Sequence record: MN850615.1
From: Escherichia phage kvi
Strand: one strand, 5' to 3'
Length of the DNA stretch: 64,000 nt
The notes under the pieces are model-generated. The model did no database searches. It saw only the letters and a program-made list of their open reading frames with translations, and had not been told where the DNA came from. Of this stretch, positions 10,178 through 58,120 are shown piece after piece (the stretch's first letter is position 1; the number at the start of each line of letters is the position of its first letter). A program made the translations under genes and the position numbers.

Positions 10178-11398
10178 TTATACTGCCATTTGAGCGGTGA
10201 TCGCTGGATGGCTTTGATAGTTGTGAATTTTAAAGTCTTTCGGAGTCTTTGTCAATACCTCATCTAAAGATTTAAATTCCGGCAACTCAATTGTTGGTTT
10301 ATCAAACGGAACACGGCTTAACTGTTCCATAACTTGATCAAAGTGGTTTTTGTAAATGTGAGTATCTCCACCAGAGAAAATCAGTTCTCCTACCTCAAGA
10401 TCACACATTTTCGCTATGATGTGAGTTAACAGCGCATAGCTGGCAACATTAAAGGGCAAGCCCAAAAAGCTGTCTACGCTTCGCTGAAACCACATACAAG
10501 ACAGTTTACCTTCATTGACGTAGAATTGCACGAAAGGATGACATACACCTAATACAGCATTATGTGTTCCCTGTACGTTCCATGAGTCAATAATGATCCG
10601 GCGATCCGTTGGATTGTTTTTAATTTGTTCAATCACGTTTTGTAACTGGTCTTCCCAAATCTTCGGGCGATAGACATATTCTTCATCGTCTTTAGTGCTT
10701 GATGTGTCTACGTCCATACTAACAAACATCGTGGTATCCGGTGCTATAATATCCCCACCCAGATAATCACTATCAAGCAGATAACCGAAATAACCATCAT
10801 CTACCCATTCCTGGAATCCCCACAAGCAATATGCATCATTAACAAAATTAGATTGAGTCTTCCAGTGGTCTGCTACCAGAATATAATCAAACTCTTCATA
10901 ACGCATACCACGCCAGATAGCACATAAACGGTCTTCTGTGTCATTGGTTGGCGTAAAGTCTTCTACCCACGGGTGCTTAAATGTATGTGTATATTTGCTC
11001 TTAACGCGCTTAATTTTGATTTCACCATGTGGATGAATCGGTTTGCGTCGCCACGCCATACCATACATATTGCCGACATTATAACCATTGAATCGCAAGG
11101 GATTCTTTTCTTTCATATCAAGACAGTTGCCGCGCCAAATATCAAAGGCTTCCTCGTCAAACTTGCCGCGTGTAATTTCCTGTAAGCGACGGCGGTCAAG
11201 TGATCCCTCCATAAACCATAGCAATTCGCCAATTACAGAGGCTGTAGCCATCTTTTTAGTGGTCAGTAATGGGAAACCCTTGCTTAAATCAATTCGCATC
11301 TCTGCGCCGAATTTAGAGAGCGTACCTACCCCCGTGCGGTCTTCACGAGGACAGCCATTATCAAGAACATCACGCAATAGTTTCAAATATTCTTTCAT
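10178..11398 (-). CDS. td: thymidylate synthase with large internal insertion
   Basis: 406 aa; ThyA motifs DRTGVGT, LLWF, RRIIIDSWNV, catalytic CHPFVQFYV, GLPFNVASYALL, GGDTHIY; extra ~130 residues between AWRR and EDQLQ. Confidence 0.85.
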   Translation of the reverse strand: MKEYLKLLRDVLDNGCPREDRTGVGTLSKFGAEMRIDLSKGFPLLTTKKMATASVIGELLWFMEGSLDRRRLQEITRGKFDEEAFDIWRGNCLDMKEKNPLRFNGYNVGNMYGMAWRRKPIHPHGEIKIKRVKSKYTHTFKHPWVEDFTPTNDTEDRLCAIWRGMRYEEFDYILVADHWKTQSNFVNDAYCLWGFQEWVDDGYFGYLLDSDYLGGDIIAPDTTMFVSMDVDTSSTKDDEEYVYRPKIWEDQLQNVIEQIKNNPTDRRIIIDSWNVQGTHNAVLGVCHPFVQFYVNEGKLSCMWFQRSVDSFLGLPFNVASYALLTHIIAKMCDLEVGELIFSGGDTHIYKNHFDQVMEQLSRVPFDKPTIELPEFKSLDEVLTKTPKDFKIHNYQSHPAITAQMAV

Positions 11399-11732: not shown

Positions 11733-12314
11733 TTACGCCTTCTTACGTTCTAAAATTTGTTCGCTGATCAGGTAATTATCAAGGAAGTAATTATGTTCTT
11801 CTTTGGTTACAAAGTCAAAATACAATTCCTGAATCATTTCCTTAGATATACCAACATCATATTCAAATGGATCGTTGATCCCTGAACGTTTAACATACGT
11901 TAACACAATACGGTCCGCAAAGTCAACTGCTTTTTCAATCAGGGAAGGTCCACCAATAACGCTTACCAAACCTTGCAATTTCTCTATGACTTCTAATAAT
12001 TCCTTCAATCCACCATCATTAGTAATCGCGGTATACACATCAGGTTGTTCGCCGTTTTTTGCTTTCGGTGCTGGCTTACTAGTATCGGTACTAACAACCA
12101 CATTCACACGACCTTCCAGTGCTTTAGGGAGACTTTCAAAGGTATTACGTCCCATTACAACCGCCGCAAGATCAACATCTCCCATAGTGCGCATTTTAAA
12201 GTTTTCCATGTCCTTTTTAATTGGACGCCCCCAGGGTAAACCGCCTTTAAAACCAAAAGCCCAATTTTCATCTGACATTTTAGTGTCACCAATCGCAAAT
12301 ACACATTGAATCAT
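11733..12314 (-). CDS. frd: dihydrofolate reductase
   Basis: 193 aa; DHFR fold motifs (IGxxxxLPW, GR-T-ES, VIGG), adjacent to td. Confidence 0.85.
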   Translation of the reverse strand: MIQCVFAIGDTKMSDENWAFGFKGGLPWGRPIKKDMENFKMRTMGDVDLAAVVMGRNTFESLPKALEGRVNVVVSTDTSKPAPKAKNGEQPDVYTAITNDGGLKELLEVIEKLQGLVSVIGGPSLIEKAVDFADRIVLTYVKRSGINDPFEYDVGISKEMIQELYFDFVTKEEHNYFLDNYLISEQILERKKA

Positions 12315-22932: not shown

Positions 22933-24423
22933 ATGGCAGATTTGAAATATGGATCTACTGTAGGTGGATCTCCCATTTGGACGCAAGGAAACTTGACGAT
23001 CCAGCCAGCGGGGGATCAGCTTTTCTACAAAGGTCATAAAATCTATACCGCTTTTGATAAACCTTCGGCTGCCGATTTTGATGCTGTTAGTGCATCCGAA
23101 GGTGGCACATTTCAAAAGCAAGTTCATTTCGAGGAAGGTTTAAGCGTAGGTAGCGCATCGGCTGGAGAAACCAAAAAGAACGGGATCTTTAAAGGAAATA
23201 GTGATGCGGCTAACTTTGATGGTGTAAGTTGGGGTTTGCATTCGTGGAAATCTATTGGTTTTGTTAATGCCCGTGATGGCGTTATCATGGCTTATATTGA
23301 CACTACCACAGGTGATTTTAAAACTAAAGGGACTATCGAAGGGACAACCATTAAAGACACAGGTCAACGCGTCTATAGCCCTGTTAATAAACCAACGAAT
23401 AATGATTTAGATTTGGTGTCTCGTCGCGGTGATACCCTCACAGGAACATATAATTTAAACACTGTCACTGTTAAACTATCGGTTGATTCGAAATTAATTG
23501 CAAGGGAACGTGATTTAATTAATTTTGATGCGACTAAGATCTATTATGGTAACGTTCTTGATACGTTGGTCTTCCGAAGTAAAGATGAGCCTACCATTTT
23601 TGTTAATGGTAAAGAAGGTCGTTTTTATCACACCAACAATAAACCAACTAAAGCCGATGTGGGACTAGGCAATGTCACCAATGATGCACAGGTTAAACGT
23701 GCTGGTGATATTATGGAAGGTAACTTGCAAGCGCCTAGAATGTTGGCGACAAACGATCCGGCTGGTCCTAATGAATTGGTTCGTTTGAGCTACTTTGAGA
23801 AAAAATCAATGGTAGCAAATCCATCCATCATTGGAAACGTTGATTGGAACACTCTTATTAATCGCGGTATCTATCGTGTGGAAAATGCTGGGTCGGGTAC
23901 TAATAAACCGTCTGATAGCTATTATAACGGCGTTTTGATGGTATATCGCCCAGAAGATGCTGTCGGTACTCGTCGAATTGTTCAGGTATACTATCCTGAA
24001 TCTATTGATCATCCGATGTGCTGGCGTTCTTGTTCTAATGAATCATGGACTGTATGGAACTATGTAGATCACCGTAAATTGGCTGATATTCGCTATGTTA
24101 ACGTAACTGGCGATACCATGACAGGACCGTTAACTGTTCCGGCGGCAAATGGCGTTAAAACGGCTAGCGGTGCATATAATGGTGATAACTACTATGCTGG
24201 ACTTAATAGCTTAAATGGTACAGCAATGATTCATCGTGTTAGCGATATTAAAGCGCACGAGAAACTAGGAATCACACATGATTCTAAAATTATTTTCGTT
24301 AAATCTCGTGGCAATACTCAGGACACCGATACCTTTGAATTATACCACGAAGGACATAAACCAACTCCTGATGAGGTTGGCGCGGTTCCGCTCAATGCGG
24401 TAATTGATTTTGGTACTTTCTAA
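22933..24423 (+). CDS. 36: long tail fibre distal subunit gp36 (enlarged)
   Basis: 496 aa; repeated NKPT..D.GL / HKPTPDEVGA motifs typical of distal fibre proteins. Confidence 0.65.
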   Translation: MADLKYGSTVGGSPIWTQGNLTIQPAGDQLFYKGHKIYTAFDKPSAADFDAVSASEGGTFQKQVHFEEGLSVGSASAGETKKNGIFKGNSDAANFDGVSWGLHSWKSIGFVNARDGVIMAYIDTTTGDFKTKGTIEGTTIKDTGQRVYSPVNKPTNNDLDLVSRRGDTLTGTYNLNTVTVKLSVDSKLIARERDLINFDATKIYYGNVLDTLVFRSKDEPTIFVNGKEGRFYHTNNKPTKADVGLGNVTNDAQVKRAGDIMEGNLQAPRMLATNDPAGPNELVRLSYFEKKSMVANPSIIGNVDWNTLINRGIYRVENAGSGTNKPSDSYYNGVLMVYRPEDAVGTRRIVQVYYPESIDHPMCWRSCSNESWTVWNYVDHRKLADIRYVNVTGDTMTGPLTVPAANGVKTASGAYNGDNYYAGLNSLNGTAMIHRVSDIKAHEKLGITHDSKIIFVKSRGNTQDTDTFELYHEGHKPTPDEVGAVPLNAVIDFGTF

Positions 24424-24427
24424 TATT

Positions 24428-24452
24428 AGCGGGGATTCTCCCCGCTTTTCTA
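24428..24452 (+). terminator. hairpin terminator/attenuator after gene 36
   Basis: AGCGGGGA-TTC-TCCCCGCT + TTTCT. Confidence 0.45.
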
Positions 24453-24491
24453 AATAATATTATTCTAATAACCGTTTAAGGATTTTATAAA

Positions 24492-27260
24492 ATGGCAGAT
24501 TTAAACAGAATCCAGTTTAAACGCACTAGCGCAGCCGGACGTAAACCGGATGCTGGTACGATGAATCCGGGAGAGTTGGCAATTAACTTAGCAGACCAAT
24601 ATCTGCTTACAAAAAATGATGATGGGCAAATTGTTAATTTAAGCTGCCCTCCTGTTTATGATAAAGGCTTTAATGTAAACGGTCGTGTTGTTGTAGATGA
24701 CCTTGTGTGGAGTAATACCGCAAACTATTTCGATGATCCGACCGCACGAAATCTTGATAAATTTGGGGCGTTTCGTACTAATGATATGGATGGTCATCTA
24801 GCATTGGCTTTGCATATTCCCCATCCTAGCGGTATAAATCATGCTCGTGGGTTGGATTTTACTTATGGTTCTAACGTTGTTCCTACTGTAAAAACCTATG
24901 GTTATAACGCTGATGGTGTATTGGCATATTCATATCGCATGTATCACGAAGGTGATAAGCCTAGTCCGTCAGAATTGAATGTGTACAGCAAACAAGAAGT
25001 AGATCGGATGTTCCAGAAGACCATCAACTTTGGTGTAGAAACTGGATGGTTTAAAATTGCTACCGCCATTATTCCGCAAAATGATGGACGTAGCTTGAAA
25101 ATTAGATTGATTGGTGGAAATGGGTGGAACGTAGGACAAACTGGACAATGTAATATTATTGAACTTGTTATAAGGACTAGCAACGGTTCGCCTAAAGGAA
25201 TTAACTTTGTTGCGTATCATCATGTTTCTGGTTACGAGAATCAATTTTGTGCCATTAATACAAGTGATGACACTTATGATATCTATGCATATTACTTCGA
25301 ATTTACTAATATGGTAATGGCTGAATATCAAGCGTCTACCGGTGTTAATTTAACTGTACTTGATCGACCTGAATATGTAGGCGAAAAACCTGTAGCTGAT
25401 CATATCTATGATGCATATACAATACACTCCTTTAACAGTTTCAGTAACCGTGGGACATTAAATTTTGCTGGAAACCATCAAGGCCAATATGACATTGAGC
25501 ATATGAACGAACAACCGACAAATGCTAAAAATATGTTGCGTCGGTTTAGAAGCTCTGCTCTTGCCACTATCTGGCATGAAACCGTTGATGACCAGAATTA
25601 TCGTCTTGCCACTGGCAGTACAGATTCAGGTCAACAATTATTGCTGACAACAACCGGGTTACATGTCAAGAGATTAACATTGGATGGTGGTGCTGCGGGT
25701 GGAAATGCTGGTATTGATATTCGTCGAGGACCAAACGAAGCAAGCCATTTTAATTTTATGGATTATCGCACTGGTCAAGATGTTCGTAATGGCTGGTTTG
25801 GTTTTGGTGATTTGACGACCAAAGATTTTATTTGGTGGAACGATAACGGTCAAAACTCGATAAACTTGGTCGAAAACGGTGAATTACAGATTTCTGGTGG
25901 TAAAGGCCAGAAAATTGTAATGAATAGCGAAGTTGCATTATCTGAAAATGCTCGTTTGGCTGTTAGAGGTGGTAATTATGGCGTGATATTCCGTAATGAT
26001 GGAACGAGCTTTCATCTGCTTACTACCGATTTAAAAGATTCTTTTGGTAATTGGAATAATCGCAGACCGTTCAGTTATGATTTCGCCACTGGTGGATTAT
26101 ATTTAGGTGGTACTGACACCGCACGTTGTTTGCATCTGGGAATTGATGGTAGTACCCGTATCGAGGATAACTTAGTTTTCAGGGCGGGATCTCGTCAATC
26201 AATGGACTACTTAGAATTTGTTCATTGGGGGGCAAGCAATGTAGGTCGAAATAACGTTTTAAGTCTTCGTGACTCAAAAGGGTTTTTAGCAGAATTTGAG
26301 CGTAAAGGTGATAACACCATTCAAAATACATTCTTCGGAAGATTTAAAGTCAATGGTGATTCTAACGTTATTACCATTAATGCTCCTACTGATTCTGATG
26401 CTGTTTATGTGAAAGGTACTTGTAATGATGTAGATAACTGGTATATCGGTAAAGGTGGTGCTGGTAATGGATTAGTTTTTTGTAGTTATAAGACTAATGC
26501 GGCTGTTCATCTCACAGATAATGGTGAGATAGCACTTGCGCCACAAAATTTTAATAATGTTAGTATTAGCAAAGACCGCATCTATATAAACGCTACACAG
26601 TGGGTTGCTAATCATTCCGGTGCATGGGACGGACAATGGCGCGAAGAAGCACCTATCTTTGTTGATCAGGGTAGTGTTGGAGAAGATAGCTATTATCCAC
26701 TTATTAAAGGACATAGCCAGATCACAGGTCAAGGTTATTCTACTAAGGTTGACTTTGGCTTACGTCGTACTCCCCAAACATGGGGACAAGCTGTTATTCG
26801 TGTTGGTTCTGCGGAAAACTCGCCAGCGGCTGGTCATCCTCAAGCTGTATTCGAGTTCCATCATGATGGTACTTTCTATTCTCCGGGTAATGGTAACTTT
26901 AACGATGTTTATATTCGTTCTGATGACCGTCTTAAGATTAATAAAGAAGAGTTAGAAAACGGAGCACTTGAAAAAGTATGCCGTCTGAAAGTTTATACTT
27001 ACGATAAAGTTAAGTCTATTAAAGATCGTAGTGTGATTAAACGTGAAGCTGGTATTATTGCTCAGGATCTTGAAAAAGAATTGCCGGAAGCTGTATCGAA
27101 AGTTGAAGTTGATGGATCTGACGTACTGACAATTTCTAACTCGGCAGTGAATGCTCTTTTAATTAAGGCTATTCAGGAAATGAGTGAAGAAATTAAAGAA
27201 TTGAAAACTCCTTTCTTTACTAAAATTGCTCGCAAAATTAGTAAATATTTTAAATTCTAA
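24492..27260 (+). CDS. 37: long tail fibre distal subunit gp37 with C-terminal intramolecular chaperone domain
   Basis: 922 aa; fibre repeats; C-terminal ~110 aa (DDRLKINKEELENG...AIQEMSEEIKELK) resembles autocleaving chaperone domain. Confidence 0.8.
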   Translation: MADLNRIQFKRTSAAGRKPDAGTMNPGELAINLADQYLLTKNDDGQIVNLSCPPVYDKGFNVNGRVVVDDLVWSNTANYFDDPTARNLDKFGAFRTNDMDGHLALALHIPHPSGINHARGLDFTYGSNVVPTVKTYGYNADGVLAYSYRMYHEGDKPSPSELNVYSKQEVDRMFQKTINFGVETGWFKIATAIIPQNDGRSLKIRLIGGNGWNVGQTGQCNIIELVIRTSNGSPKGINFVAYHHVSGYENQFCAINTSDDTYDIYAYYFEFTNMVMAEYQASTGVNLTVLDRPEYVGEKPVADHIYDAYTIHSFNSFSNRGTLNFAGNHQGQYDIEHMNEQPTNAKNMLRRFRSSALATIWHETVDDQNYRLATGSTDSGQQLLLTTTGLHVKRLTLDGGAAGGNAGIDIRRGPNEASHFNFMDYRTGQDVRNGWFGFGDLTTKDFIWWNDNGQNSINLVENGELQISGGKGQKIVMNSEVALSENARLAVRGGNYGVIFRNDGTSFHLLTTDLKDSFGNWNNRRPFSYDFATGGLYLGGTDTARCLHLGIDGSTRIEDNLVFRAGSRQSMDYLEFVHWGASNVGRNNVLSLRDSKGFLAEFERKGDNTIQNTFFGRFKVNGDSNVITINAPTDSDAVYVKGTCNDVDNWYIGKGGAGNGLVFCSYKTNAAVHLTDNGEIALAPQNFNNVSISKDRIYINATQWVANHSGAWDGQWREEAPIFVDQGSVGEDSYYPLIKGHSQITGQGYSTKVDFGLRRTPQTWGQAVIRVGSAENSPAAGHPQAVFEFHHDGTFYSPGNGNFNDVYIRSDDRLKINKEELENGALEKVCRLKVYTYDKVKSIKDRSVIKREAGIIAQDLEKELPEAVSKVEVDGSDVLTISNSAVNALLIKAIQEMSEEIKELKTPFFTKIARKISKYFKF

Positions 27261-27297
27261 CAACAAGGGGGCAACGCCCCCCTTTGGAGTATAAATT

Positions 27298-28077
27298 ATG
27301 GCAGTAGTTGGTGTTCCTGGTTGGATTGGAAGTTCAGCCGCAAATGAAACAGGGCAACGATGGATGAGTCAAGCGGCTGGTCAATTAAGATTGGGTGTTC
27401 CTTGCTGGATGAGTCAATTTGCAGGTCGCTCGCGAGAAATTATTCATACACTTGGTGCAGACCATAACTTCAATGGTCAGTGGTTCCGTGATAGATGCTT
27501 TGAAGCAGGTAGTACACCTATAGTGTTTAATATCACTGGAGATTTAGTATCATATTCTAAAGATGTTCCTTTATTCTTTATGTACGGAGATACACCGAAT
27601 GAATATGTTCAGTTGAATATACACGGCGTAACGATGTATGGACGTGGCGGTAATGGCGGTAGCAATGGTCCTGGATCAGCCGGGGGGCATTGTATTCAAA
27701 ATGATATTGGTGGGAGACTAAGAATTAATAATGGTGGAGCTATTGCAGGTGGCGGTGGCGGTGGCGGTGGCGGTAACAGGGGTCGACTAGTATTTGGTGG
27801 TGGCGGTGGTCGCCCATTCGGTGCTGGTGGGTCTTCCTCGAATATGGGTTCTGGTGCAACCGCTGGCACTATTTACGCTCCGGGTCAAGGATCTGTTGGT
27901 TCGGGGTCTCTTAGTGCATATACAGGCGGTGCGGGCGGTAACGTTGGTGCTGCTGGAGGAAGATGTAATACTCACGGTAACGGTACAGAATATAACGGCG
28001 GAGCTGCTGGTTATGCTGTTATAGGGTCTGCTCCAACGTGGCAAAATCGCGGAGCTATTTACGGACCGGCTGTTTAG
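27298..28077 (+). CDS. 38: tail fibre adhesin gp38 (T2-type, glycine-rich motifs)
   Basis: 259 aa; conserved N-terminus [23 protein letters not shown] and multiple poly-Gly motifs separating variable segments. Confidence 0.8.
27748..27774 (+). repeat. (GGTGGC)n hexanucleotide repeat inside gene 38
   Basis: ggt ggc x4 + ggt encoding a Gly9 run. Confidence 0.9.
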
Positions 28078-40551: not shown

Positions 40552-41115
40552 TCAACTAAAATTTAAAGATGCAAACTCCCCGTGATGAATTTTTGCATAT
40601 TCATCATATGCTCTAGCGGCTTCCTCCTGAGTAGCAAACGATCCTATGTATTTTCTGTATCCGTTTATCCTTATTTGTGCTTGCCACGGTCTTTTGCTAG
40701 ATCCTTTGCGATGAGTAACACCATTATATATGCTCGTGCACCCGTCAATTTTCTTTTTATTGTACATGTTTTGTTGTTGTGTTGCCTCCCGTAAATTTGG
40801 TGGATTGTTGTTTTCTGGATTCCCGTCTATGTGGTCTATTACCTTAACCTGTGTTCCATATTCAAGAAACCAGACAATTCTATGTACAAGATATGTAGAT
40901 GTTCTCTTTTTAACCTTATTGTAAACATCTATTGCCAAATGACCGTAATTTAACTTTTTTGTTTTTACTTTATCACCGACTCGGTAGAAATATCCCTCTG
41001 GTAGACCATTAAAAGACGGACTATTTGTTTTGTGATATAGAACACCTTCCGTGTGTTCAAATCTGCGTTTTAATTCCTCTTGAATTTCAGTATTCCAAAA
41101 TTTCGCACTTTTCAT
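40552..41115 (-). CDS. HNH homing endonuclease with AP2 domain (Mob-like)
   Basis: HNH core (YLVHRIVWFLEYG..VIDHIDGNPENNNPPNLREATQQQN) plus AP2-like (GVTHRKGSSKRPWQAQIRINGYRKYIGSFATQEEAARAYDEYA); immediately downstream of gene 39. Confidence 0.8.
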   Translation of the reverse strand: MKSAKFWNTEIQEELKRRFEHTEGVLYHKTNSPSFNGLPEGYFYRVGDKVKTKKLNYGHLAIDVYNKVKKRTSTYLVHRIVWFLEYGTQVKVIDHIDGNPENNNPPNLREATQQQNMYNKKKIDGCTSIYNGVTHRKGSSKRPWQAQIRINGYRKYIGSFATQEEAARAYDEYAKIHHGEFASLNFS

Positions 41116-41116
41116 A

Positions 41117-42940
41117 TTATGACGCCATCCATGCCTTCCTCATGTCTGAATCTTCACTATAGAGCAAATCGAATAGCTCTTTATAGTTTTCCGGTAACGT
41201 GATGATCTCCATGACAGGATCGTTGATCACGCGATGATAGTCTGATTCTGTGAGCGATGCTAAACCTTTGATATATCGAATGTTGTAACCTTTGATATTA
41301 TCTCGGTCGGTCTCAAAATCTTCTAGGTCATAATACCATCGAACATCATCACCTTTCTTTGGTTCCGCAATGATAATAGGTGTTTTGATAAACCGGATTC
41401 GTCCATCTTCGAACAATTCAGGCCAACGAGCAAAGAAAGAGATCAGACTAGGTTTAATAGACCCGATCCCGTCAGTATCAGCGTCTGTCATAATCGCAAT
41501 ATTTTTGTATTGCATAACTTCCAATGCATCAACACCAAATTGCAAGCCAGTGATCGCCATGATGTTAAAAATTTCGGCGTTCTTAACGATCTTTGCCTCC
41601 GGTTGTTCCCACGTTGTAAGAGTTTTGCCTCGCAACGGGAAACCTCCATGTAAATCTGGATCACGTACAGAGACCAGATAGTTGATCGCGGAATCACCTT
41701 CCGTCAAAAACAGGGTAGTTTCTGCGTCAGTTCCAATAAGGTTAGCTTTAACGTGTTTTGCTACCTTAGCCCGTTTCGCTGCTTTTGCTACCTTAGTCGC
41801 TGCCGCTTTATCTGCTGCCTCTTTGCGTGCCAGGACTACAGCAATAATAGGCATGATAATGTTTTCTTTCTTCGCAATGACTTTAGCCAGCTTTTTAAAA
41901 TCAAGATCAATATGACGCTTGATATCACCAGTTGGATTAGTCAATCGTTCTTTTGTCTGTGAATCAAAACGAAGGTTAGGCAATTCACGAACAATAAGAA
42001 TACAGGTCAATCCAGACTTAACCGCAGCTTTAGTAACATCAACCTTATGTTCTTTCTTGATTCGTTTTACAATCTCTTCACAAAGATCATCTGTCACGTA
42101 GTCTACGTGTGTTCCCCCGTTTTTGGTAAACAGACCATTAGCAAAGGATACTGATTTAAAACCTTCTCCCTCGACCGCAGGAACTAGGGCAAGTGAAAAG
42201 TTTTTATCTTCAATGACAAACGGATCATCATTGTATAGTTTAGCATAATCCTTGAACTTACTAACAATACGTTTACCATTAAACTTAAACGTGATCTTAG
42301 GAAAGATTACGCTCAATGATTGCAGACGATCATGAACAATATCTAAAACAGAGTTGTCCATCATATAACCTTCGAAGTGGTCGAAGTCTGGGCAAAATGT
42401 AACCTTTGTTCCCTTCAATTTTGATGGTTTCGATGACCATGTGATATTTTCAGCACCGTTTGTACATTGAACGGTCATTTCTGTTTCTCCGTCACAGGTC
42501 ACACCAGTAAACCAATCGCTAAAGAAATTTGACAACGACGACCCCACACCGTTCATCCCTTGCGTTAATCGATTGGTATCATCAAAGTTAGACCCTGCTT
42601 TTGTTCGTGTCCATGCGGCTACAGGTTGCGGAATCTGCGTGCCCTCTGGAGTAGTAACCATATGTTGAGGAATACCGCGACCATTGTCTGTTACCGTAAC
42701 AATATTGTTTTGGATATCGACGCTAATCACATTGGCAAATTCAAAATTAGTGCGAATCGCCTCGTCTACAGAGTTGTCGATGATCTCATCAATGATTTTA
42801 ACCAGTCCTGGAACATATGAAATTTTTGTCCATTTACCGAACAGGAAACGTTGGTGTTCTTCGTAAGTTGTTGATCCTATATACATTCCTGCACGCTTAA
42901 GGACATGTTCACGATCAGATAAAATGCGAAACTCACTCAT
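41117..42940 (-). CDS. 39: DNA topoisomerase II large subunit (fused gp39+gp60 type)
   Basis: 607 aa; GyrB-type ATPase (GHKL) and TOPRIM motifs in one ORF. Confidence 0.85.
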   Translation of the reverse strand: MSEFRILSDREHVLKRAGMYIGSTTYEEHQRFLFGKWTKISYVPGLVKIIDEIIDNSVDEAIRTNFEFANVISVDIQNNIVTVTDNGRGIPQHMVTTPEGTQIPQPVAAWTRTKAGSNFDDTNRLTQGMNGVGSSLSNFFSDWFTGVTCDGETEMTVQCTNGAENITWSSKPSKLKGTKVTFCPDFDHFEGYMMDNSVLDIVHDRLQSLSVIFPKITFKFNGKRIVSKFKDYAKLYNDDPFVIEDKNFSLALVPAVEGEGFKSVSFANGLFTKNGGTHVDYVTDDLCEEIVKRIKKEHKVDVTKAAVKSGLTCILIVRELPNLRFDSQTKERLTNPTGDIKRHIDLDFKKLAKVIAKKENIIMPIIAVVLARKEAADKAAATKVAKAAKRAKVAKHVKANLIGTDAETTLFLTEGDSAINYLVSVRDPDLHGGFPLRGKTLTTWEQPEAKIVKNAEIFNIMAITGLQFGVDALEVMQYKNIAIMTDADTDGIGSIKPSLISFFARWPELFEDGRIRFIKTPIIIAEPKKGDDVRWYYDLEDFETDRDNIKGYNIRYIKGLASLTESDYHRVINDPVMEIITLPENYKELFDLLYSEDSDMRKAWMAS

Positions 42941-47579: not shown

Positions 47580-48104
47580 TTAGTAGCCTCGTTCTTGACG
47601 GGCGAAGTTTTCAGCATTTTTCAGATAGTACAGAATAAAGAGTTCTTGAGCGTCAATACCCAGCGGGATCATCTTTGACAGAATGAAGTGGATAGCGTCC
47701 ACAAATTCAAATTTCACTTCAAGCTGATCTTCCGGTGACAGTTCAGAGAATTTACGCGCTCGCGCTTCCCCGTGGTTCTTTTTCCACATTTTCCAGATTG
47801 CACTTGCATCTTTACCATTGGACATTCCACCCAGCGATGTGTAAAGCTCTCGTGTTTCGTCTGCGATAGCGTCATCCATCCGCTGCATCCAATCCAGCAT
47901 TTCACCGCAAGTCTCTAGCTTAGTTGGATTTGGGACCCAATCAAATTTTTCGGATAGTGCAACCTGCAAACCAGTTTGCATTTCGAGCATCACCTGAAAC
48001 GGATCTTTACCTTCTGCAATCGCGTGATGATATGCGGCGATAGCCGCGTTAATATCTTTTTCGTTAACCAGACCAGCACAAGAATTAAATTCTGACATAT
48101 TCAC
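47580..48104 (-). CDS. 56: dCTP/dUTP pyrophosphatase gp56-like (MazG-type)
   Basis: 174 aa; MazG-like EExxE/D helices; position between mod-like gene and primase. Confidence 0.5.
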   Translation of the reverse strand: MNMSEFNSCAGLVNEKDINAAIAAYHHAIAEGKDPFQVMLEMQTGLQVALSEKFDWVPNPTKLETCGEMLDWMQRMDDAIADETRELYTSLGGMSNGKDASAIWKMWKKNHGEARARKFSELSPEDQLEVKFEFVDAIHFILSKMIPLGIDAQELFILYYLKNAENFARQERGY

Positions 48105-50768: not shown

Positions 50769-52181
50769 TTAGAAAGTCATGTTATTTGCTAGCTCGTCGA
50801 GTTTTTCTCGTTTCTCGGCTTGCTGTGCGCTTTGTGGTTTAACTTGTGCATTCTCCTGATCTGCGATCTGGTTTGGGACTTCATACCAACGCTGATTGCC
50901 TTTTTTCACACCAACGTTAAACCGTGAATAATAGTTCTTATCACCGTAACGAGACTTGATCTGCTTCATGAGTTGGACGCCCATTTTAGCCAGGTCTTCG
51001 GTTTCGATAACACCCAACATAAAGTCGGCAGTAGCCGGAAGACCTGCTGATTCAGCGGTATCACTCATGTTAAGGTCGGAAGCATCCCAACCAGCACGGG
51101 TAGTTTGTGCCGCAGTCCAACCAACAACATCCCACTTAACAAAAAATCCGCGAAGTTCTTCCGCAATCGCTTTAACGAGAGTGTAGCTATTCTCAGAGTA
51201 TACACGCAAGCGAGACGATGCGCAAATCCCCAGATAGTCAACAATCACAACATCAGGTTTAAACTGTTTCTTGAGTCGCAATTCATTCATTAACGCCTCA
51301 AAGTGATTGGAGTTCGCGCCACCAGTCGGATACTGCTTGATCATCAATTTTCCAACCGGACGATCTCCGATCTTCTTATTCTTAACACGCTTCATACGTG
51401 CGGAATATTCCGCAAAAGAAACATTACCATTATCCAATTCATCTAATGTAATGTCAAGCAAGTTTGCGTCGATACGTTTGGCTACGACATGCTCTGCCAT
51501 CTCCATTGAGATATACAATACATCATAACCACATTCCATATAATCCGCAGCAAGAGAACATAATCCAAGCGATTTACCAACATTTACACCAGCAAGCAAC
51601 ACATTTAGCGTTTTTCTTTCCGCACCTCCTTTCGTGATTTTATTCAACATCGGCAGCTTAAACGGGATCTTATTCGCCTTAGTCTGATATAGCAAGAATC
51701 GTTTTTCAAAGTCATTAAACCAGTCATGACCTACATCAGAATCAAACGTAATGGATAGTGCTTCCTGCATGATCTCAGGAATAGCACCCTCACTCGGCAA
51801 TTTCTTATTCTGTTTCTCTTTTGGTAGTTGTGCGTTCGCCTGAATCTCTAGCGCCCGTGACATTGCATTATACATGGCACGGTCACGAATAAATTTTTCG
51901 GTTTCCTTCATTAACCAATCAAGGTCTTCCGGTGTATTCTCAAGCGAATCAAGAAGAGTTTTAGCCCCTTCATATGTTGTCTGATTGCCTCTCTCCTTGT
52001 CTAAAGCAATCTGTAATGCAGTTGGCGTAGGAATGTTGGAATATTCGTCTACGTGCTTTTTAATCAGCTTATAAATCAGTTTTTCTTCGTCTTCGGTGAA
52101 GTAGTCCGCTTTAAGGTGAGGCCATACATTCGTAAAGAATGCGCCATTGTAAATCAACTGTGAAAAGATAGTTTTAATCAT
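50769..52181 (-). CDS. 41: replicative DNA helicase gp41 (DnaB-like)
   Basis: 470 aa; Walker A GVNVGKS, DnaB-family C-terminal RecA-like domain. Confidence 0.9.
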   Translation of the reverse strand: MIKTIFSQLIYNGAFFTNVWPHLKADYFTEDEEKLIYKLIKKHVDEYSNIPTPTALQIALDKERGNQTTYEGAKTLLDSLENTPEDLDWLMKETEKFIRDRAMYNAMSRALEIQANAQLPKEKQNKKLPSEGAIPEIMQEALSITFDSDVGHDWFNDFEKRFLLYQTKANKIPFKLPMLNKITKGGAERKTLNVLLAGVNVGKSLGLCSLAADYMECGYDVLYISMEMAEHVVAKRIDANLLDITLDELDNGNVSFAEYSARMKRVKNKKIGDRPVGKLMIKQYPTGGANSNHFEALMNELRLKKQFKPDVVIVDYLGICASSRLRVYSENSYTLVKAIAEELRGFFVKWDVVGWTAAQTTRAGWDASDLNMSDTAESAGLPATADFMLGVIETEDLAKMGVQLMKQIKSRYGDKNYYSRFNVGVKKGNQRWYEVPNQIADQENAQVKPQSAQQAEKREKLDELANNMTF

Positions 52182-52495
52182 ACATAGCCCCCAACTACAC
52201 GCATAACAAAGGTCTTGAGTTTATACCAGAAAGTTTCTTTTTTCAACTTTTCTTCTGCTTCTTTGATCTGCGCGGTTAACGCCTTAATGACGTGTGGATA
52301 TACCACATCACGATCTGACGGCGTGGAGTAGTCGACCACAATACCTTTAGTGTCTGGATCGTATTCAACATTATGAATATAGACAATATGATGTTCTCCC
52401 TCTTCATCAACAATTATCAGTTCCTGAATAACTGTCTTCATTGCTTCTTGAATCAAGCCGTGTGCTTCTTCTAAACTTGTTGGTTTCTTATCCAT
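52178..52495 (-). CDS. 40: gp40-like membrane-associated protein
   Basis: 105 aa; position between uvsX and 41; hydrophobic C-terminus. Confidence 0.4.
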   Translation of the reverse strand: MDKKPTSLEEAHGLIQEAMKTVIQELIIVDEEGEHHIVYIHNVEYDPDTKGIVVDYSTPSDRDVVYPHVIKALTAQIKEAEEKLKKETFWYKLKTFVMRVVGGYV

Positions 52496-52514
52496 AATAT
52501 AATCCTCTCTAGAT

Positions 52515-52538
52515 ATGAAAAAGGGGCACGTAGCCCCT
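52515..52538 (-). terminator. rho-independent terminator after uvsX
   Basis: AGGGGC-TACGT-GCCCCT + TTTTTCA on minus strand. Confidence 0.5.
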
Positions 52539-52550
52539 TTACTACCATTG

Positions 52551-53621
52551 TTATGCTAACATATCTTCGATTTCTTTGTCAACTGCTTCGTCGCTGATCA
52601 CTTGCCCCAGCTTATAATGATCGTTGATTGCTTCGTTAAACTTATCGTTTGTCAGAAGTGGTTTCCAGAACTCAATGCTATTGGTTTCTTTAGCACGGAA
52701 CTTGCGTTCTTCGGTTTCCATCTCTCCGGTCTCGGTATTTAGGATTGAACGAGAATACCAGCCGTTTGACGGTTTCACTACCCAGCCTAACTCTACAGCC
52801 AATTCCAGCAACCCGGAATAAGGATCGATACCACCGCTAAATGTTACGCTAATCGGGAACTTAGATTTTTCTTTAACGGTTCGTGATTTTTCCGCATTCA
52901 GGATAAAATCATAACCAGTAATTTCGGTTCCTTCTTTCTGCTGACGACGACCAATAATGAAAACTTCATTGGCTGAATACATCGCGCCCGTACCGCCGGA
53001 CATAACGGTCTTACTAAACATTTCTTGCGTTTCGTAAGTGTGGTTAATAGCGATGCACGGGATATCATTCATAGTCAGATACGGCGTAACCATACGGAAC
53101 AAGCCTTTAAGTGCTTTAGCTCGCGTCATATCCTGCGCTGATTTCTCATTAATCGCGTCTTCAACTTCTTTTTTGCTTGCTAAGTTACCGATTGAGTCAA
53201 TAAAGATGATCACTTTATCTTCACGGGTAATTTGCTCAAGCTGGTTCATGATTTCAAATTTCAGTTCTTCGATGTTCTTGATTGGAACATGCACCACGCG
53301 ATCAGGATCTACACCCATAGATTCAAGATAAGCGGACGTAATACCAAACTCAGAATCAAAGAACAAGCACGCCGCATCAGGATTCTGTTTCATGTATGCA
53401 CTAACGCAAGTTAATCCCATGTTTGATTTAAAGTGCTTAGACGGACCAGCAAAGAAAATCAGACCAGATTGAAAGCCTTTTTTAAGATCACCTGAAAACG
53501 CAATATTCAGCATCGGGATCTTAGTGCGAGTATTTGTTTTTTCGTTAAAGAAGCTGGATTTAGACAGTACCGCAGTAGTTTTCAGGGTAGAGTTCTTTTT
53601 CAGTTTTTCCAGTACAGACAT
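52551..53621 (-). CDS. uvsX: UvsX recombinase (RecA/Rad51 family)
   Basis: 356 aa; Walker A GPSKHFKSN, RecA-fold motifs. Confidence 0.9.
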   Translation of the reverse strand: MSVLEKLKKNSTLKTTAVLSKSSFFNEKTNTRTKIPMLNIAFSGDLKKGFQSGLIFFAGPSKHFKSNMGLTCVSAYMKQNPDAACLFFDSEFGITSAYLESMGVDPDRVVHVPIKNIEELKFEIMNQLEQITREDKVIIFIDSIGNLASKKEVEDAINEKSAQDMTRAKALKGLFRMVTPYLTMNDIPCIAINHTYETQEMFSKTVMSGGTGAMYSANEVFIIGRRQQKEGTEITGYDFILNAEKSRTVKEKSKFPISVTFSGGIDPYSGLLELAVELGWVVKPSNGWYSRSILNTETGEMETEERKFRAKETNSIEFWKPLLTNDKFNEAINDHYKLGQVISDEAVDKEIEDMLA

Positions 53622-53632
53622 TATTAATACCT

Positions 53633-53860
53633 CTATTCAGTTAATCCGTAATACTTTAATTGCTTCATTGTTATTCGATCTTTGTAGTGCTCTTGAATTA
53701 ACTTTTTCATCGCATCAACATCGATCGTCACAAATACTTCGTTGCTGTGATTTCCGTGAACTTTCTTGAAATGCTCTATGCCTTCCTCACGTTCACGTTT
53801 AATCTTTTCAATGTCTCTCATCGTATATTTCTCACGTTGGCGGGTATCGTCACCCAACAC
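53633..53860 (-). CDS. hypothetical protein
   Basis: 75-aa ORF, the only gene between 43 and uvsX. Confidence 0.4.
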   Translation of the reverse strand: MLGDDTRQREKYTMRDIEKIKREREEGIEHFKKVHGNHSNEVFVTIDVDAMKKLIQEHYKDRITMKQLKYYGLTE

Positions 53861-53882
53861 CCGCCATTATACACACTTTATC

Positions 53883-55359
53883 TTAAATGTCAAACAGGTC
53901 AGTCAGAGAAGCAACTTTCTCATATTGCAGCTTTGCAGCCGTGGTAATGTTCTCCAGTGGTTTGACGAAAGTCTTATTAAACAACAAAGGCCAGTCTAAC
54001 CACTTTAACACCTCTGATTCAATTTCTGGAGGAATACGAGTACCGGACAACCAACCAAAACAGATTTCTCCAAACGGATTTCGATCTTTCAGCGGTACAA
54101 TCATAACCTTCTCGCCCTCACGAATTGGATCTAGTCCGAATTTTCGAGCATTACGATTATAACACAATACACTCTTAACCGCATACGGACAACCCTTAAT
54201 CGGATACCCGTTTGAATCGCTGTATTTCTGTAGGTTGTTTGCAGATGATACCGCAGCAACCTCAAGATAATCAAGTTTTCTAAATTCTTGCTCAAAAATA
54301 CCGTAGTATTCCTGCAATGACTCTTCACCTTCCTGCAACATACGGCGAATACATTCTTTCAGTGATTTCTGACATGCTTTAGGGGTGGAGCTACGTTGCG
54401 TTTCCAAGCCCATGATTTTTAGCTTAGGTTCAGCAAAGCGCGTTCCTTCCATATCCCAAACATTAAGAGCATAACGCTTTTTGCCAGTCCAGAATCCACC
54501 GATACCCGCAGATTTCAACGGAGGACCAGCAATTGCCTCACGGTCCATAAACATCAAGTGCTCATAGTTGTTCATGTACTCGCATAACTCGCGATATCCC
54601 TTGTCGATAATAGGTTCCATTCGATGTTTACCGAAATTATCAAGGAAGTCAACAAGTTTTTCGGTATCGTCGAAACGGTCTTCCCCGCCAACCTTATCAA
54701 CAACATTGTTAACCAGCACATAAACGGAGTCAGTATCACAATAACGAACATATGCAAAATCGGTTGTTCCGCAAAGCTCGTTTAAGTATTCGTTAATCTT
54801 ACGCTCAATCCACTGAATTGCAAGCTGACCAAACAAGGTGATCGCACTAGCGTTACGGAGATCATAAAAACGGAATTTAGGATTCCCCAACGCACCATAA
54901 AGGGAGTTGATCAAAACTTTTCGAGAAAGCTGGTTTGTATTGCACAAGATCGACTCGTCTTTACATTCTTCCAGCAATTTCTCTAAGGCATCTTTACTTA
55001 ATTCAGAAAGCATCGATTTAAACGCTTCATCAAAGTCGTGACGTACTTCAACGCTATAGCTAATGGTTCCCCCATAAACATGATTTTCATCGTGTAGAAT
55101 CGCTTTACAGAGTTCAGCATTGCGATCACATGCCAACATCATGTTTTTGTACTGCTTACGCTGATCGAATACCTTTTTAATCTCAATCGGTACGATACCG
55201 TGAATATCTTTTCTATACATCCATCCGTTAGGAGAGCAAGAATACTCATCACTCGGACGTGGTGCAGTTTTATTGATATACTCGTGCATCGGTGCAGCAT
55301 CAAAAGATCCGGCGATTGTTTCCGGCGAAATGTTAACCTGACGGATGATTGATGGATAC
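53883..55359 (-). CDS. 43: DNA polymerase gp43, exon 2 (polymerase domain)
   Basis: frame open from 55358 (YPSIIRQVN...) with TAA just upstream; family-B motifs KILINSLYGALG and YCDTDS. Confidence 0.85.
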
Positions 55360-56473
55360 CATTATGTTCAGCGCGGTTCGCTACTCCCGCGCCCGTTCTC
55401 TTACGAACTGCTACATGTCACCATGTAGATCAGACTATATCACATTCTCATAGAGAATCCTGCCATTTCGAATCGCTTGATTCTACTCTACTCGGTTCGT
55501 TACCCTTTCGATAGTCGTTGAACAACTGCATCTTTAAGCTCATTTTGATCAAACGGTGTTCTCTTACAGTACCCGCTATAATTCTTAGCAAAAGGTTTCT
55601 TCTTACCAAAGATCTCTTTTCCTGAATTATGTGATTCAACAAGAAAATTCACCATTTCATCAAATGTGAAACTTGCAAATTTAGCATAAGTTTCATTACG
55701 TTTTGACATTATTTTACTCATAACTTCCGGTCGTTTAGACGCTGAATTTTCGCGTTTCTCGCCAGTATTAAATGATACCAACTCACCGGAAACATATCTA
55801 GGATCATCACAACTAACTCTAAACCGATTTCCTTCCTTATCCTTAACGATAACAGTATTCTTTAGCTTTTCTGCCATAGAATCAAGACCTTTTCGTATAG
55901 TGTCCTCATCAGCCCCGAAATATTTCTTTCCGCTCATATCGGTTCTGGCTTTTCCGGTCTTGTTTTCGGATATTTTCAGTCTAACTTCCTCTCGCTTGGC
56001 TGGGTTATTGTCTCCAGCGAATGCATCTTTGGTTAACGCCTTCACTTTATCGTCATAAGATCCTCTAGAGATGAAAGCATATGCTCTCTTGCATTCACCG
56101 TTATTGAATATTAAGCACAATAACCGATGCGCCTCGACGTGGTCTTCAAACTTAAGCCTAACAAGATTCCATTTATCTAACCGATATTCAGGGAACATTG
56201 ACTTCGGGCATATATGATGCACCTCGGAATATTCTTCACCCTGATACGGATTAGACACCAGTTTAATGTAGTCGTTTAATGCTTCCTCGTTATGTATTTC
56301 GTACTTTCTTAAAATGTCTTTCATCTCGCGCCTCCAATGTATATCAATATTTATATACATTATAAGACACGTTAGCTCAAAATGCAACTGCTGCTGATTG
56401 TCTCCTTAGAGATTTCCCAGCAATTAAGCAGGTTATTCGATCACTGTCACCAGTGAAAGCCCCATATCAGTTT
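55360..56473 (-). mobile_element. group I self-splicing intron in gene 43
   Basis: P, Q, R, S core elements in order; 5' exon ends in U, intron ends in G; encloses HNH ORF. Confidence 0.8.
55500..56324 (-). CDS. intron-encoded HNH homing endonuclease
   Basis: start refined to ATG 56324 (SD GGAGG); HNH motif EVHHICPKSMFPEY..WNLVRLKFEDHVEAH; 3' end overlaps intron R element. Confidence 0.8.
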   Translation of the reverse strand: MKDILRKYEIHNEEALNDYIKLVSNPYQGEEYSEVHHICPKSMFPEYRLDKWNLVRLKFEDHVEAHRLLCLIFNNGECKRAYAFISRGSYDDKVKALTKDAFAGDNNPAKREEVRLKISENKTGKARTDMSGKKYFGADEDTIRKGLDSMAEKLKNTVIVKDKEGNRFRVSCDDPRYVSGELVSFNTGEKRENSASKRPEVMSKIMSKRNETYAKFASFTFDEMVNFLVESHNSGKEIFGKKKPFAKNYSGYCKRTPFDQNELKDAVVQRLSKG

Positions 56474-57675
56474 AGGGAAGTAAGGTCAAAGCTCATCATC
56501 CAACGGTAAGCATTCGGCACAGGTTCTTTTACGAATGCGCCTGGATACGTCTGCTTAGGCTGTATCTTATTTTCCGGTACTACTTTACCCTCAGCTTTCA
56601 GAGATCCGAAGATAATAGCATCCCATACTTTCATCGGGTTATAAACATGGTTAAATTTAATCTTTGCATAGAAACATAGACTATACACCAGATCGATAAA
56701 TCCACGCTTTTTATCAATCGCCAGCACACGATCAACGTCGCCGATGTTATAATCGATGTAAAGTTGATGGTTGTCATCACGCAATTTCTTTAACGGACCA
56801 TCATAATCAACCTTACCGATTCCTGTCTCATATTCAGCAACATAATCTAACGCATATGTTGGTTGAGTCGTAAAGCTAAATTTCTTGTATAGGTCAATAT
56901 AATCAAGGCTTTCGATCCCCATGATCGTAAATGCTTCACGCTCGTTGCCAAAATCATCCTGTGAGATTCGGGATTTAATCTTACCGCACGGGCTTAGACG
57001 GTTAGCGGTTCTACTTCCGAACTTATTACTGATACGTTTAATGATATATGGAATATCGAATGTTTCTGTGTTCCAGCCAGTGAAACCAACGGGTCGGTTT
57101 TCCTCAAAGAATCGGATGTATTCTAACAGCAATTCATCTTCTGTGTCATAGACGTTATAAACAACGCGCTCTACAATATCAGGTCGAAGAATAGACTTGC
57201 TAGATTCCCAGATTTCACCGTTTTTTCCTTTCAAATCAAATACAAAGAAACGATCATGTACGGAATCATAATGCGTAATTGCATCGATAGGATATTTCGC
57301 TTCTTCTGGTTTAGGAAATTCTGGGGCAGTGACCTCGATATCAACCCATGCTACACGGATTTTATTTCGGTCATATCGAATCTCTCCTTTATACGTATCA
57401 GACAGATAGGAGATGATAAAATCATCCATCCCTAGCGCCTCTTGCCCCATTTCTCCCATCTTTTTACGCCATTTGTTGGCCTCGTTCATAGAGGGGAATT
57501 TTTTAGCAATGCAAGGCTTGCCATAGATATCTTTATAATTCGTAACCATACCAGGCGCGGCATGATGAAATAAAGTTGGCGTATATTCAACGTAACGCTC
57601 TTGTTCTTGTCCAGCATCATCAATATAACGCTCGTAGATCTTATCACCTACTCGCTCACATGACAGAAAATACAT
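56474..57675 (-). CDS. 43: DNA polymerase gp43, exon 1 (3'-5' exonuclease domain)
   Basis: start refined to ATG 57675 (SD GAAGGAG; track start is GTG); Exo I WVDIEV, Exo III YNIGDVD; ends ...SFDLTSL. Confidence 0.85.
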
Positions 57676-57707
57676 AATATAAACTCCTTCACTTACGAAA
57701 GACACTC

Positions 57708-57736
57708 ATTATAGGGGAATCGACTTAGTTTGTCAA
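57708..57736 (-). promoter_or_regulatory. sigma70-like promoter upstream of gene 43
   Basis: TTGACA N17 TATAAT. Confidence 0.5.
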
Positions 57737-57757
57737 TACCCCTATCCCATCAGTATC

Positions 57758-58120
57758 TTATCGCCCGATCTGATATTTCTCGATCAGCGTCCACTCTTCT
57801 TTCTGTTTGAAAGACAATACACGGAAATTATTAACTTCGGTAGTTTCAAAATCACTATCAATCAGGGTACACAGATTCCACTGCGCCAGAAGTTTTGCAA
57901 TGTTATTACGGCGTAATTCATCTTCCCACGTCATTTTAACACTACGACCATCTAATTTCAACAACTCCTTGAAATGAACGATGTAATAGCGCCCTTTCTT
58001 CTGGAGAATATGACAAGACTGATACAGTGTCTTGTCTCGATTGTTGGCAATGCCGCAGCGGGTTAAAGTTTCCTTAATTTTAAGGAAGTTTTCAGGACTA
58101 ATCAAATTAATTTCAATCAT
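57758..58120 (-). CDS. regA: translational repressor RegA
   Basis: 120 aa; conserved RegA block TRCGIANNRDKTLYQSCHILQKKGRYYIVHFKE. Confidence 0.85.
   Translation of the reverse strand: MIEINLISPENFLKIKETLTRCGIANNRDKTLYQSCHILQKKGRYYIVHFKELLKLDGRSVKMTWEDELRRNNIAKLLAQWNLCTLIDSDFETTEVNNFRVLSFKQKEEWTLIEKYQIGR

Follow-up and report, generated by a model that had tools for sequence, protein, structure and literature searches.

Gene content of the 43-uvsX junction

The locus described here lies within a 64,000-nucleotide stretch, termed here the window, of the genome of Escherichia phage kvi (MN850615.1), which is about 165 kb long in all. Within the window the genes for DNA polymerase (gene 43) and for the recombinase UvsX, both of which are on the minus strand, are separated by only 261 bp: the gene 43 stop codon (TAA) occupies positions 53885-53883 and the uvsX start codon (ATG) begins at 53621, in agreement with the interval of 53622-53882 that a preliminary description of this DNA had given. 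The junction and its surroundings contain the following features:

52551-53621, minus strand: uvsX (RecA-like recombinase), 356 aa; 63% identity to T4 UvsX over 350 aa (tblastn)
53633-53821, minus strand: a 62-codon open reading frame (termed here ORF62), homologue of RB49p025 and member of phrog_12120 (PHROG E = 4e-42, all 62 residues aligned over the whole length of the 62-residue profile)
53822-53860, minus strand: non-coding 5' leader, counted earlier as 13 extra codons starting from a GTG at 53860
53839-53865, minus strand: stem-loop predicted by RNA folding, GGCGGGTGTTG-GGTGA-CGATACCCGCC, which follows the -10 hexamer without a gap and forms the hairpin part of a PeSL element
53866-53893, minus strand: perfect sigma-70 early promoter, TTGACA-N16-TATAAT, matching the consensus at 12/12 positions
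53883-55359, minus strand: 3' coding part of gene 43 (DNA polymerase), approximately T4 gp43 residues 413-897; Pfam DNA_pol_B
55360-56480, minus strand: 1,121-bp insertion in gene 43, corresponding to a gap in the megablast alignment to RB49
55500-56387, minus strand: HNH homing-endonuclease ORF within the gene 43 insertion (phrog_12434, E = 4e-131)
56481-57675, minus strand: 5' coding part of gene 43, from the exonuclease domain to the start of polymerase motif A; Pfam DNA_pol_B_exo1

T4 has the same core genes on either side, in the same orientation, with gene 43 upstream and uvsX-40-41 downstream; there, however, the two genes are separated by approximately 3.6 kb (positions 23562-27196 of the T4 record) encoding imm.1, imm, gene 42, b-gt and segA, whereas here they are separated by a single, unrelated 62-codon ORF. 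The preliminary description had listed imm, gene 42 and beta-gt as the occupants of the T4 interval, a list that is accurate but that leaves out segA and imm.1; it had rightly noted a single ORF at the junction analysed here, but had made it 75 codons long. At the same locus, uvsX is annotated in both RB49 and ECD7.

Krischvirus corresponds to the RB49/phi1/JSE 'pseudo-T-even' group of the Straboviridae, and both identity to RB49 and synteny place the window within this genus. It is 97-99% identical to RB49, JSE, ECD7 and PTE-Eco09; RB49 aligns to 57,749 of its 64,000 bp at 97.4% identity; and the order 41-40-uvsX-ORF62-43-regA-62-44-45 is common to the window and to RB49, phi1, JSE, ECD7, PTE-Eco09 and TB34. 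(The G+C content is 40.6%.) When positions 52000-58000 are searched with megablast, the best match is PTE-Eco09 (99.4%; RB49 yields 98.6%), and every one of the 58 near-full-length matches is a Krischvirus. The junction promoter and the 62-codon ORF of the window occur likewise in RB49 and other Krischvirus genomes, which also resemble it both in what they retain (cd, td, frd, 56, denA and dam) and in what they are missing (42, a-gt, b-gt, imm, alc and denB). Segments without an RB49 match are the gene 43 insert (which is absent from RB49, but which the window shares with ECD7, JSE and PTE-Eco09), an HNH-AP2 ORF adjoining gene 39, the distal tail-fibre region and a few small ORFs. A junction-spanning segment of 901 bp is colinear in 58/58 Krischvirus records at 95-100% identity (with one record at 100%). 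The genus as a whole shares this fixed 43-uvsX arrangement, which is not a peculiarity of this isolate.

A promoter and stem-loop element at the junction

The TTGACA hexamer (53893-53888) lies inside the last codons of gene 43 and TATAAT lies at 53871-53866; the stem-loop begins right after the latter, is not followed by a U-tract, and is separated by a 17-nt leader from the ATG at 53821. Within the window there are 8 perfect matches to TTGACA-N15-18-TATAAT, all on the minus strand, against an expected number of 0.11, and 32 sites with at most one mismatch, every one of them again on the minus strand. Among the 32 promoter-proximal stretches that were folded, that at the junction forms the most stable stem-loop (-22.0 kcal/mol; 11 pairs). 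The RB49 annotation records a 'hypothetical early promoter' at the equivalent place.

Elements of this kind, termed PeSL (early promoter plus stem-loop), were reportedly described for RB49 and phi1 by Arbiol et al. in 2010. The junction element conforms to their definition in that a near-consensus sigma-70 promoter is adjacent to a Gn-loop-Cn stem-loop. In RB49 and phi1 such elements combine sigma-70 hexamers that are nearly perfect with a Gn-loop-Cn stem (Comeau et al. 2014, PMC4122927). The resemblance extends to the spacing (TTGACA-N16/17-TATAAT, then Gn-loop-Cn) and to the location upstream of a small ORF without an assigned function; the junction copy differs, however, in lying between two core genes and in being invariant across the genus. 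None of the 58 genus members has an indel here, nor was any sign found that this copy has recently mediated shuffling; the contrast with T4 is at most compatible with a role of such elements as recombination points for ORF shuffling. The promoter is predicted to give an early transcript of ORF62, uvsX, 40 and 41. Because the stem-loop directly follows the -10 hexamer, it would form fully only in transcripts that read through from gene 43.

The 62-codon ORF

The 75-codon reading of the ORF, which starts from the GTG at 53860, was rejected: this codon is part of the hairpin's 5' arm, lacks a ribosome-binding site and is located 6 nt past the -10 hexamer, that is, roughly at the expected start of transcription. 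Moreover, the 62-residue phrog_12120 profile covers residues 14-75 of the long reading and leaves the extra 13 uncovered, and RB49, ECD7 and PTE-Eco09 each annotate a 189-nt gene here. At its other end, the ORF62 stop codon (53635-53633) is followed by 11 nt containing GAGG and then by the uvsX ATG; because the stop codon is only 11 nt from that ATG, the two genes are probably co-transcribed.

ORF62 is at least 95% identical in the 58 Krischvirus records, and the family is otherwise rare, with 8 matches among 1.84 billion cluster representatives; a word-indexed protein search returned only 4 near-identical proteins. The protein is charged, with a conserved segment 'IEHFKKxHGNHSxEV', and matches no Pfam or NCBIfam family. 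An AlphaFold2 model consists of three helices (pLDDT 79) and has no fold neighbour in the PDB with an E-value below 6. Outside of Krischvirus, Salmonella phage Akira has a homologue that stands alone as an ORF, and in Klebsiella phage BUCT791 a homologous 45-residue module forms the N-terminus of a DUF2800/PD-(D/E)XK nuclease, the gene for which adjoins a DNA polymerase gene. Based on its position and on the fusion of this module to a PD-(D/E)XK nuclease in Klebsiella phages, ORF62 might, as a tentative guess, act early, alongside the co-expressed UvsX, as an accessory factor in the recombination or replication of DNA; the main alternative is a role in host takeover or anti-defence.

A further candidate function, that of a stand-in for Imm, was rejected, since ORF62 lacks both sequence similarity to Imm and a membrane segment. 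T4 Imm is likewise encoded by a small early gene just downstream of gene 43, but it is an 83-residue membrane protein, whereas ORF62 is highly charged and without a hydrophobic stretch.

Retained genes of nucleotide metabolism

The preliminary description had also reported cd, td, frd and a gene 56 candidate elsewhere in the window, and tblastn and Pfam searches bear out all four:

302-808, minus strand: cd, dCMP deaminase; 56% identity to T4 Cd; Pfam dCMP_cyt_deam_1
10178-11398, minus strand: td, thymidylate synthase; Pfam PF00303, E = 1.5e-84
11733-12314, minus strand: frd, dihydrofolate reductase; 37% identity to T4 Frd; Pfam DHFR_1
47580-48104, minus strand: gene 56 homologue (dCTPase/dUTPase family); Pfam dUTPase_2; phrog_173, NTP pyrophosphohydrolase

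The only thymidylate-synthase-family gene in the window is td. An Asn at the position equivalent to Asn177 marks an enzyme acting on dUMP, whereas dCMP hydroxymethylases have an Asp there. In an alignment to E. coli ThyA, both the catalytic Cys and the Asn of 'LPFNVASY' are intact in td, which by these residues is an enzyme of the dUMP type. In T4, gp56 is a dCTPase; the homologue here aligns with it over its full length (173 residues, 49% identity, E = 2e-60). The specificity of this homologue may plausibly have narrowed towards dUTP, inasmuch as a dCTPase would be unexpected in a phage with cytosine DNA. In such a phage, with a G+C content of 40.6%, cd, td, frd and gp56 would most simply serve the supply of dTMP and the clearance of dUTP, and not the synthesis of hydroxymethylcytosine (hmC). 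Gene 56 is present in all but the giant phages (Petrov 2010, PMC2993671).

The retention of a full-length gp56 together with denA in a phage with cytosine DNA counts against the main explanation given below.

Search for the T4 hydroxymethylcytosine genes

The preliminary description left two possibilities: either the hydroxymethylation and glucosylation genes are located elsewhere in the genome, or the phage uses a different cytosine chemistry. T4 proteins taken from the annotated record were therefore used as tblastn queries against three targets: (i) the window, (ii) the complete RB49 genome, and (iii) positions 1-76000 and 125001-167554 of PTE-Eco09, which are the parts of that genome outside the equivalent of the window. 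No significant match was found in any of the three for gp42, a-gt, b-gt, imm, imm.1, alc, denB, arn, ndd, motA or asiA. The sole signal for gp42 is a weak match to its paralogue td (E = 0.013), and neither a-gt nor b-gt yields anything better than E = 1 with the T4 queries, a search whose reach does not extend to a highly divergent enzyme. Positive controls were readily detected by the same means (gp56, 49% identity; denA, 49%; cd, 56%; frd, 37%; dam, 46%; uvsX, 63%; gp43, 52-58%). Absence beyond the window is judged indirectly, from relatives that are 97-99% identical to it.

Other lines of evidence agree. None of the missing T4 genes is annotated in RB49, and in 30 unassigned ORFs from RB49 and the window no glycosyltransferase and no second thymidylate-synthase-like Pfam domain was found. 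In RB49 the site of the alpha-gt gene (between 47 and a-gt.4) is occupied instead by an HNH endonuclease. RB49p189 has no sequence match to any solved structure. In T4, alc, denB and arn act against cytosine-containing DNA or protect hmC DNA. None of the genes by which a T4-type hmC system would be recognised (gp42, an alpha- or beta-glucosyltransferase, and alc, denB and arn) came up in these searches. The genus very probably lacks the whole of the hmC system, i.e., gene 42, both glucosyltransferases, alc, denB and arn, and the phage would therefore replicate with ordinary cytosine.

Restriction-site avoidance

Observed counts of palindromic words were compared with their maximal-order Markov expectation in the window, in RB49 and in a 109-kb sample of T4. 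The observed/expected ratios are as follows:

6-mer palindromes with four G/C: window 0.30, RB49 0.32, T4 0.97
Non-palindromic 6-mers with four G/C: window 1.00, RB49 1.00, T4 1.00
GATC: window 1.02, RB49 1.06, T4 0.35

Within the 164 kb of RB49, TCCGGA is observed 0 times against 65 expected, AAGCTT 0 against 38, ACCGGT 0 against 35, GGATCC 0 against 34 and GAATTC 2 against 46; the genome contains no EcoKI site; and the ratios for CCWGG and CCSGG are 0.38-0.39, as compared with 1.05-1.11 in T4. No avoidance is seen in this lineage for GATC, the site methylated by the Dam enzyme that the phage itself encodes, whereas T4 is depleted of it.

Such a depletion of palindromes is the classic signature of a lineage that has faced restriction enzymes of types I and II. 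If cytosines have long been masked, there is no selection against restriction sites. T4, the DNA of which contains glucosyl-hmC, shows no depletion of G/C palindromes (0.97), in contrast to the ordinary-cytosine Krischvirus (0.30 in the window). The depletion fits unmodified cytosine and argues against a general masking of cytosine in the past of the genus. Escape from restriction may instead have come about through the loss of nearly all 6-bp palindromes containing G/C and of all EcoKI sites, to which Dam and further methyltransferases encoded by the phage may add. A limited literature search found no published description of restriction-site avoidance in RB49.

Cytosine chemistry of the genus

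Published evidence points in the same direction. The carriers of gene 42 do not include the RB49 type (Petrov 2010, PMC2993671, Table 4). RB49 has served as an unmodified control; it is described as having neither the hydroxymethylase nor beta-gt, and HpaII as well as NheI were shown to cut its DNA (Yaung 2014, PMC4041780). Krischvirus is likewise described as lacking the hmC gene and endonuclease IV, and RB49 is stated to transduce plasmids (Nikulin 2025, PMC12115623). Finally, in a 2026 paper on the Durham Collection, the Krischvirus phage TB34 was found by HPLC-MS to contain canonical nucleosides only, and Krischvirus was reported to have no genes for hmC synthesis and glycosylation at the syntenic loci (PMC13390438).

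Because the window is of the RB49 type, the absence from it of the hmC genes is explained outright; the missing hydroxymethylase and glucosyltransferase genes are an expected and already published property of the genus. In sum, it is very likely that this is a Krischvirus with a fixed 261-bp unit between 43 and uvsX, with no relocated cassette and no hmC system, and with DNA containing ordinary cytosine. The 'different cytosine chemistry' envisaged earlier would, on this account, be simply that of plain, unmodified cytosine; no evidence of an exotic modification was found. It is their ordinary cytosine that makes RB49 virions suitable as an unmodified control, that renders RB49 DNA sensitive to restriction and to Cas9, and that underlies plasmid transduction. 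What the present analysis contributes is the assignment to Krischvirus, the correction of the ORF from 75 to 62 codons, the recognition of the promoter/stem-loop element, and the proposal that restriction would be escaped by purging sites rather than by masking cytosine, which bears on the report, in the same 2026 paper, of a modified Krischvirus stock.

That stock, termed SAP, yielded 5-hmdC and alpha-gentiobiosyl-methyl-dC and was sensitive to BrxU, with the pathway given as 'unknown' (PMC13390438). Taken at face value, it would suggest that Krischvirus, possibly including the phage considered here, can make hmC or glycosyl-hmC through an unrecognised pathway, i.e., by enzymes unrelated to gp42 and the glucosyltransferases, switched by some factor other than gene content. 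The many Krischvirus ORFs without an assigned function leave room for such enzymes, and the retention of gp56 and denA would suit them. If so, the empty 43-uvsX interval would mark a lineage with an undiscovered pathway of pyrimidine modification and, were the SAP result real, gene content would be no predictor of cytosine chemistry in Krischvirus.

The details of the report, however, favour another reading. The SAP genome is 99.96% identical to that of the unmodified TB34; seven Tequatrovirus phages of the collection to which SAP belongs have the same modification profile; and, among the modified DNAs, SAP DNA was cleaved most weakly by BrxU (all from PMC13390438). A table of variants between SAP and TB34 lists 15 substitutions, all of them C-to-T or G-to-A, and about 50 one-base indels (PMC13390438). 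The indels fall mostly in runs of the same base and are most likely assembly errors, because many of them would frameshift essential genes (43, 45, uvsX, 39, nrdB and 47 among those affected). As for the substitutions, all 8 that could be checked in the SAP sequence lie at the central base of CCSGG, for which reason Dcm sites (CCWGG) were rejected as their location, and at 6 of the 7 sites that could be mapped the SAP allele is found in RB49; they are either real mutations or motif-specific base-calling errors. Judged from these sequences, no difference in gene content and no plausible coding difference appears to account for the switch in SAP chemistry. Given a profile identical to that of Tequatrovirus and the weakest BrxU cleavage, a mixed or mislabelled stock is preferred here, as the more likely reading, to a hidden pathway. 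Since RB49 and TB34 are, in addition, experimentally unmodified, and since palindrome avoidance points to a lineage whose DNA has long been exposed to restriction enzymes, cytosine modification by unrelated enzymes in this phage or its genus is judged very improbable.

Slightly less probable still is a simple rearrangement, in which genes for hmC synthesis and glucosylation would be present outside the 64-kb window. Only 64 kb of the approximately 165-kb genome are in view, and T4-like genomes do shuffle accessory genes within hyperplastic regions (PMC4122927). The tblastn searches with T4 proteins were, however, extended beyond the window by way of the complete RB49 genome and the outlying parts of PTE-Eco09, and no relocated gene 42 or glucosyltransferase gene came to light in either or in the window itself; in RB49 an HNH endonuclease is found at the alpha-gt site; the genus is stated to be without these genes in three independent papers; and a strong avoidance of palindromes would not persist in hmC-protected DNA. 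A recent, isolate-specific deletion of a T4-like cassette, of which the short interval would be the scar, can be dismissed as the least credible of all: although T4 has over 3 kb more at this place and a PeSL, a proposed mediator of indels, lies exactly at the junction, not one of the 58 Krischvirus records departs from the colinear order of these 901 bp, none of the companion genes (alc, denB, arn and alpha-gt) is present anywhere in the genome, and the depletion of palindromes throughout the genome points to a long history with unmodified DNA.

The insertion within gene 43

Upstream of the junction, gene 43 of the window is interrupted. Residues 413-897 of T4 gp43 match positions 55358-53892 (58% identity, tblastn) and residues 4-412 match positions 57672-56473; the 3' part is colinear with RB49 gene 43 up to position 55359, where the 1,121-bp insertion begins. 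With Rfam gathering thresholds, neither a tRNA nor any annotated RNA is found in the whole window; the insertion does align to the full length of the RF00028 model, at a sub-threshold score (30.6 bits, against a gathering score of 50). The insertion is probably a group I intron, and an intron has been proposed at the equivalent place in gene 43 of JSE (Petrov 2010, PMC2993671).

Depletion of palindromic restriction sites

Six-base-pair palindromes containing four G/C bases are strongly under-represented in the window, where they occur at an observed/expected ratio of 0.30, as compared with 0.97 in T4. Non-palindromic 6-mers with the same number of G/C bases occur at a ratio of 1.00; the depletion--which is seen both in the window and in the loci of the RB49 record (L004-L007)--is specific to palindromes, as well as extreme. 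Numerous common restriction sites are missing altogether, and RB49 contains no EcoKI site. GATC, by contrast, is not avoided in this lineage, whereas in T4 it is depleted (observed/expected 0.35).

Substitutions distinguishing SAP from TB34

The genome sequences of the Krischvirus stocks SAP and TB34 differ at the following positions that were checked in SAP (OZ034687.1):

2830, 5316, 11508, 15164, 19368, 21108, 31223, 32862

Every one of these eight substitutions falls at the central base of a CCSGG motif (CCCGG to CCTGG), and half of the 16 CCSGG sites within the first 35 kb of SAP are affected. At six of the seven sites that could be mapped onto RB49, the latter carries the SAP allele. Such a pattern reflects either a motif-specific base-calling error or else motif-directed mutation or selection.

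A candidate cytosine methylase

Outside the window, the RB49 record encodes a protein with a domain of the GmrSD_N (DUF262) type (E = 5e-20):

L006 15041-16606 (RB49 record 115041-116606), RB49p187

Two genes away is RB49p189, which belongs to phrog_757 ('DNA methyltransferase') and in which FDGSG, PPC and ENP motifs, similar to those of C5-cytosine methyltransferases, can be recognized by eye; a match to RB49p189 was found neither among Pfam domains nor among PDB sequences. RB49p189 may be a site-specific cytosine methylase whose neighbour, RB49p187, has a nuclease-like domain of a type directed against modified DNA.

Nucleotide-metabolism and nuclease genes

The genes concerned lie in the window:

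3838-4299, minus strand, denA (endonuclease II)
10178-11398, minus strand, thymidylate synthase
47580-48104, minus strand, full-length gp56 homologue, 49% identical to T4 gp56

In T4, gp56 is a dCTPase/dUTPase and endonuclease II initiates the breakdown of cytosine-containing DNA; both genes are retained here although the phage's own DNA contains cytosine. The presence of gp56 and denA in RB49 has been mentioned in the literature (PMC8056088). The thymidylate synthase is 406 residues long, as opposed to 264 in E. coli, and retains its catalytic residues; the extra sequence lies between the parts aligning to E. coli residues 82 and 110--the region of the variable 'small domain' of this enzyme--and no separate Pfam domain was detected within it.

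Homing endonuclease ORFs and the tail-fibre region

Two homing endonuclease ORFs, one of them within an insert in gene 43, occur at the following positions:

40552-41115, minus strand, HNH_3 + AP2 homing endonuclease ORF, adjoining gene 39
55360-56480, minus strand, insert in gene 43 (1,121 bp)
55500-56387, minus strand, HNH homing endonuclease ORF (phrog_12434) within the insert

Both the insert and the HNH_3 + AP2 ORF (alignment gap 40556-41144) are missing from RB49. The split in gene 43 comes just where polymerase motif A begins, with '...SFDLTSLN' as the last residues of the upstream ORF and the equivalent of T4 residue 413 restarting at 55358. The insert matches the group I intron model RF00028 over the full length of the model, although the score of 30.6 bits is below the gathering score of 50. 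Instead of being synthesized as two proteins, the polymerase probably arises by translation of a spliced mRNA.

The distal long-tail-fibre region (24662-27738), for which megablast finds no match in RB49, is presumably a swapped host-range module.

Sigma-70 promoters

Near-consensus sigma-70 promoters (at most one mismatch in 12) occur at 32 sites from 1067 to 61585, none of them on the plus strand. In several cases a G/C-rich hairpin comes directly after the promoter (for example, at 59762, 47572, 43030 and 40555), and these pairs look like PeSL elements. The promoter at 40555-40528, just downstream of the HNH_3 + AP2 ORF, is perfect.

Relatives of the 62-residue protein

The 62-residue protein encoded between gene 43 and uvsX has a conserved core, 'IEHFKKxHGNHSxEV', which recurs in two other settings: as the N-terminal module of a 430-residue DUF2800/PD-(D/E)XK nuclease in the Klebsiella siphophage BUCT791 (L015 2468-3760), and within a free-standing 60-residue ORF in the Akiravirus Salmonella phage Akira (L014 2447-2629).
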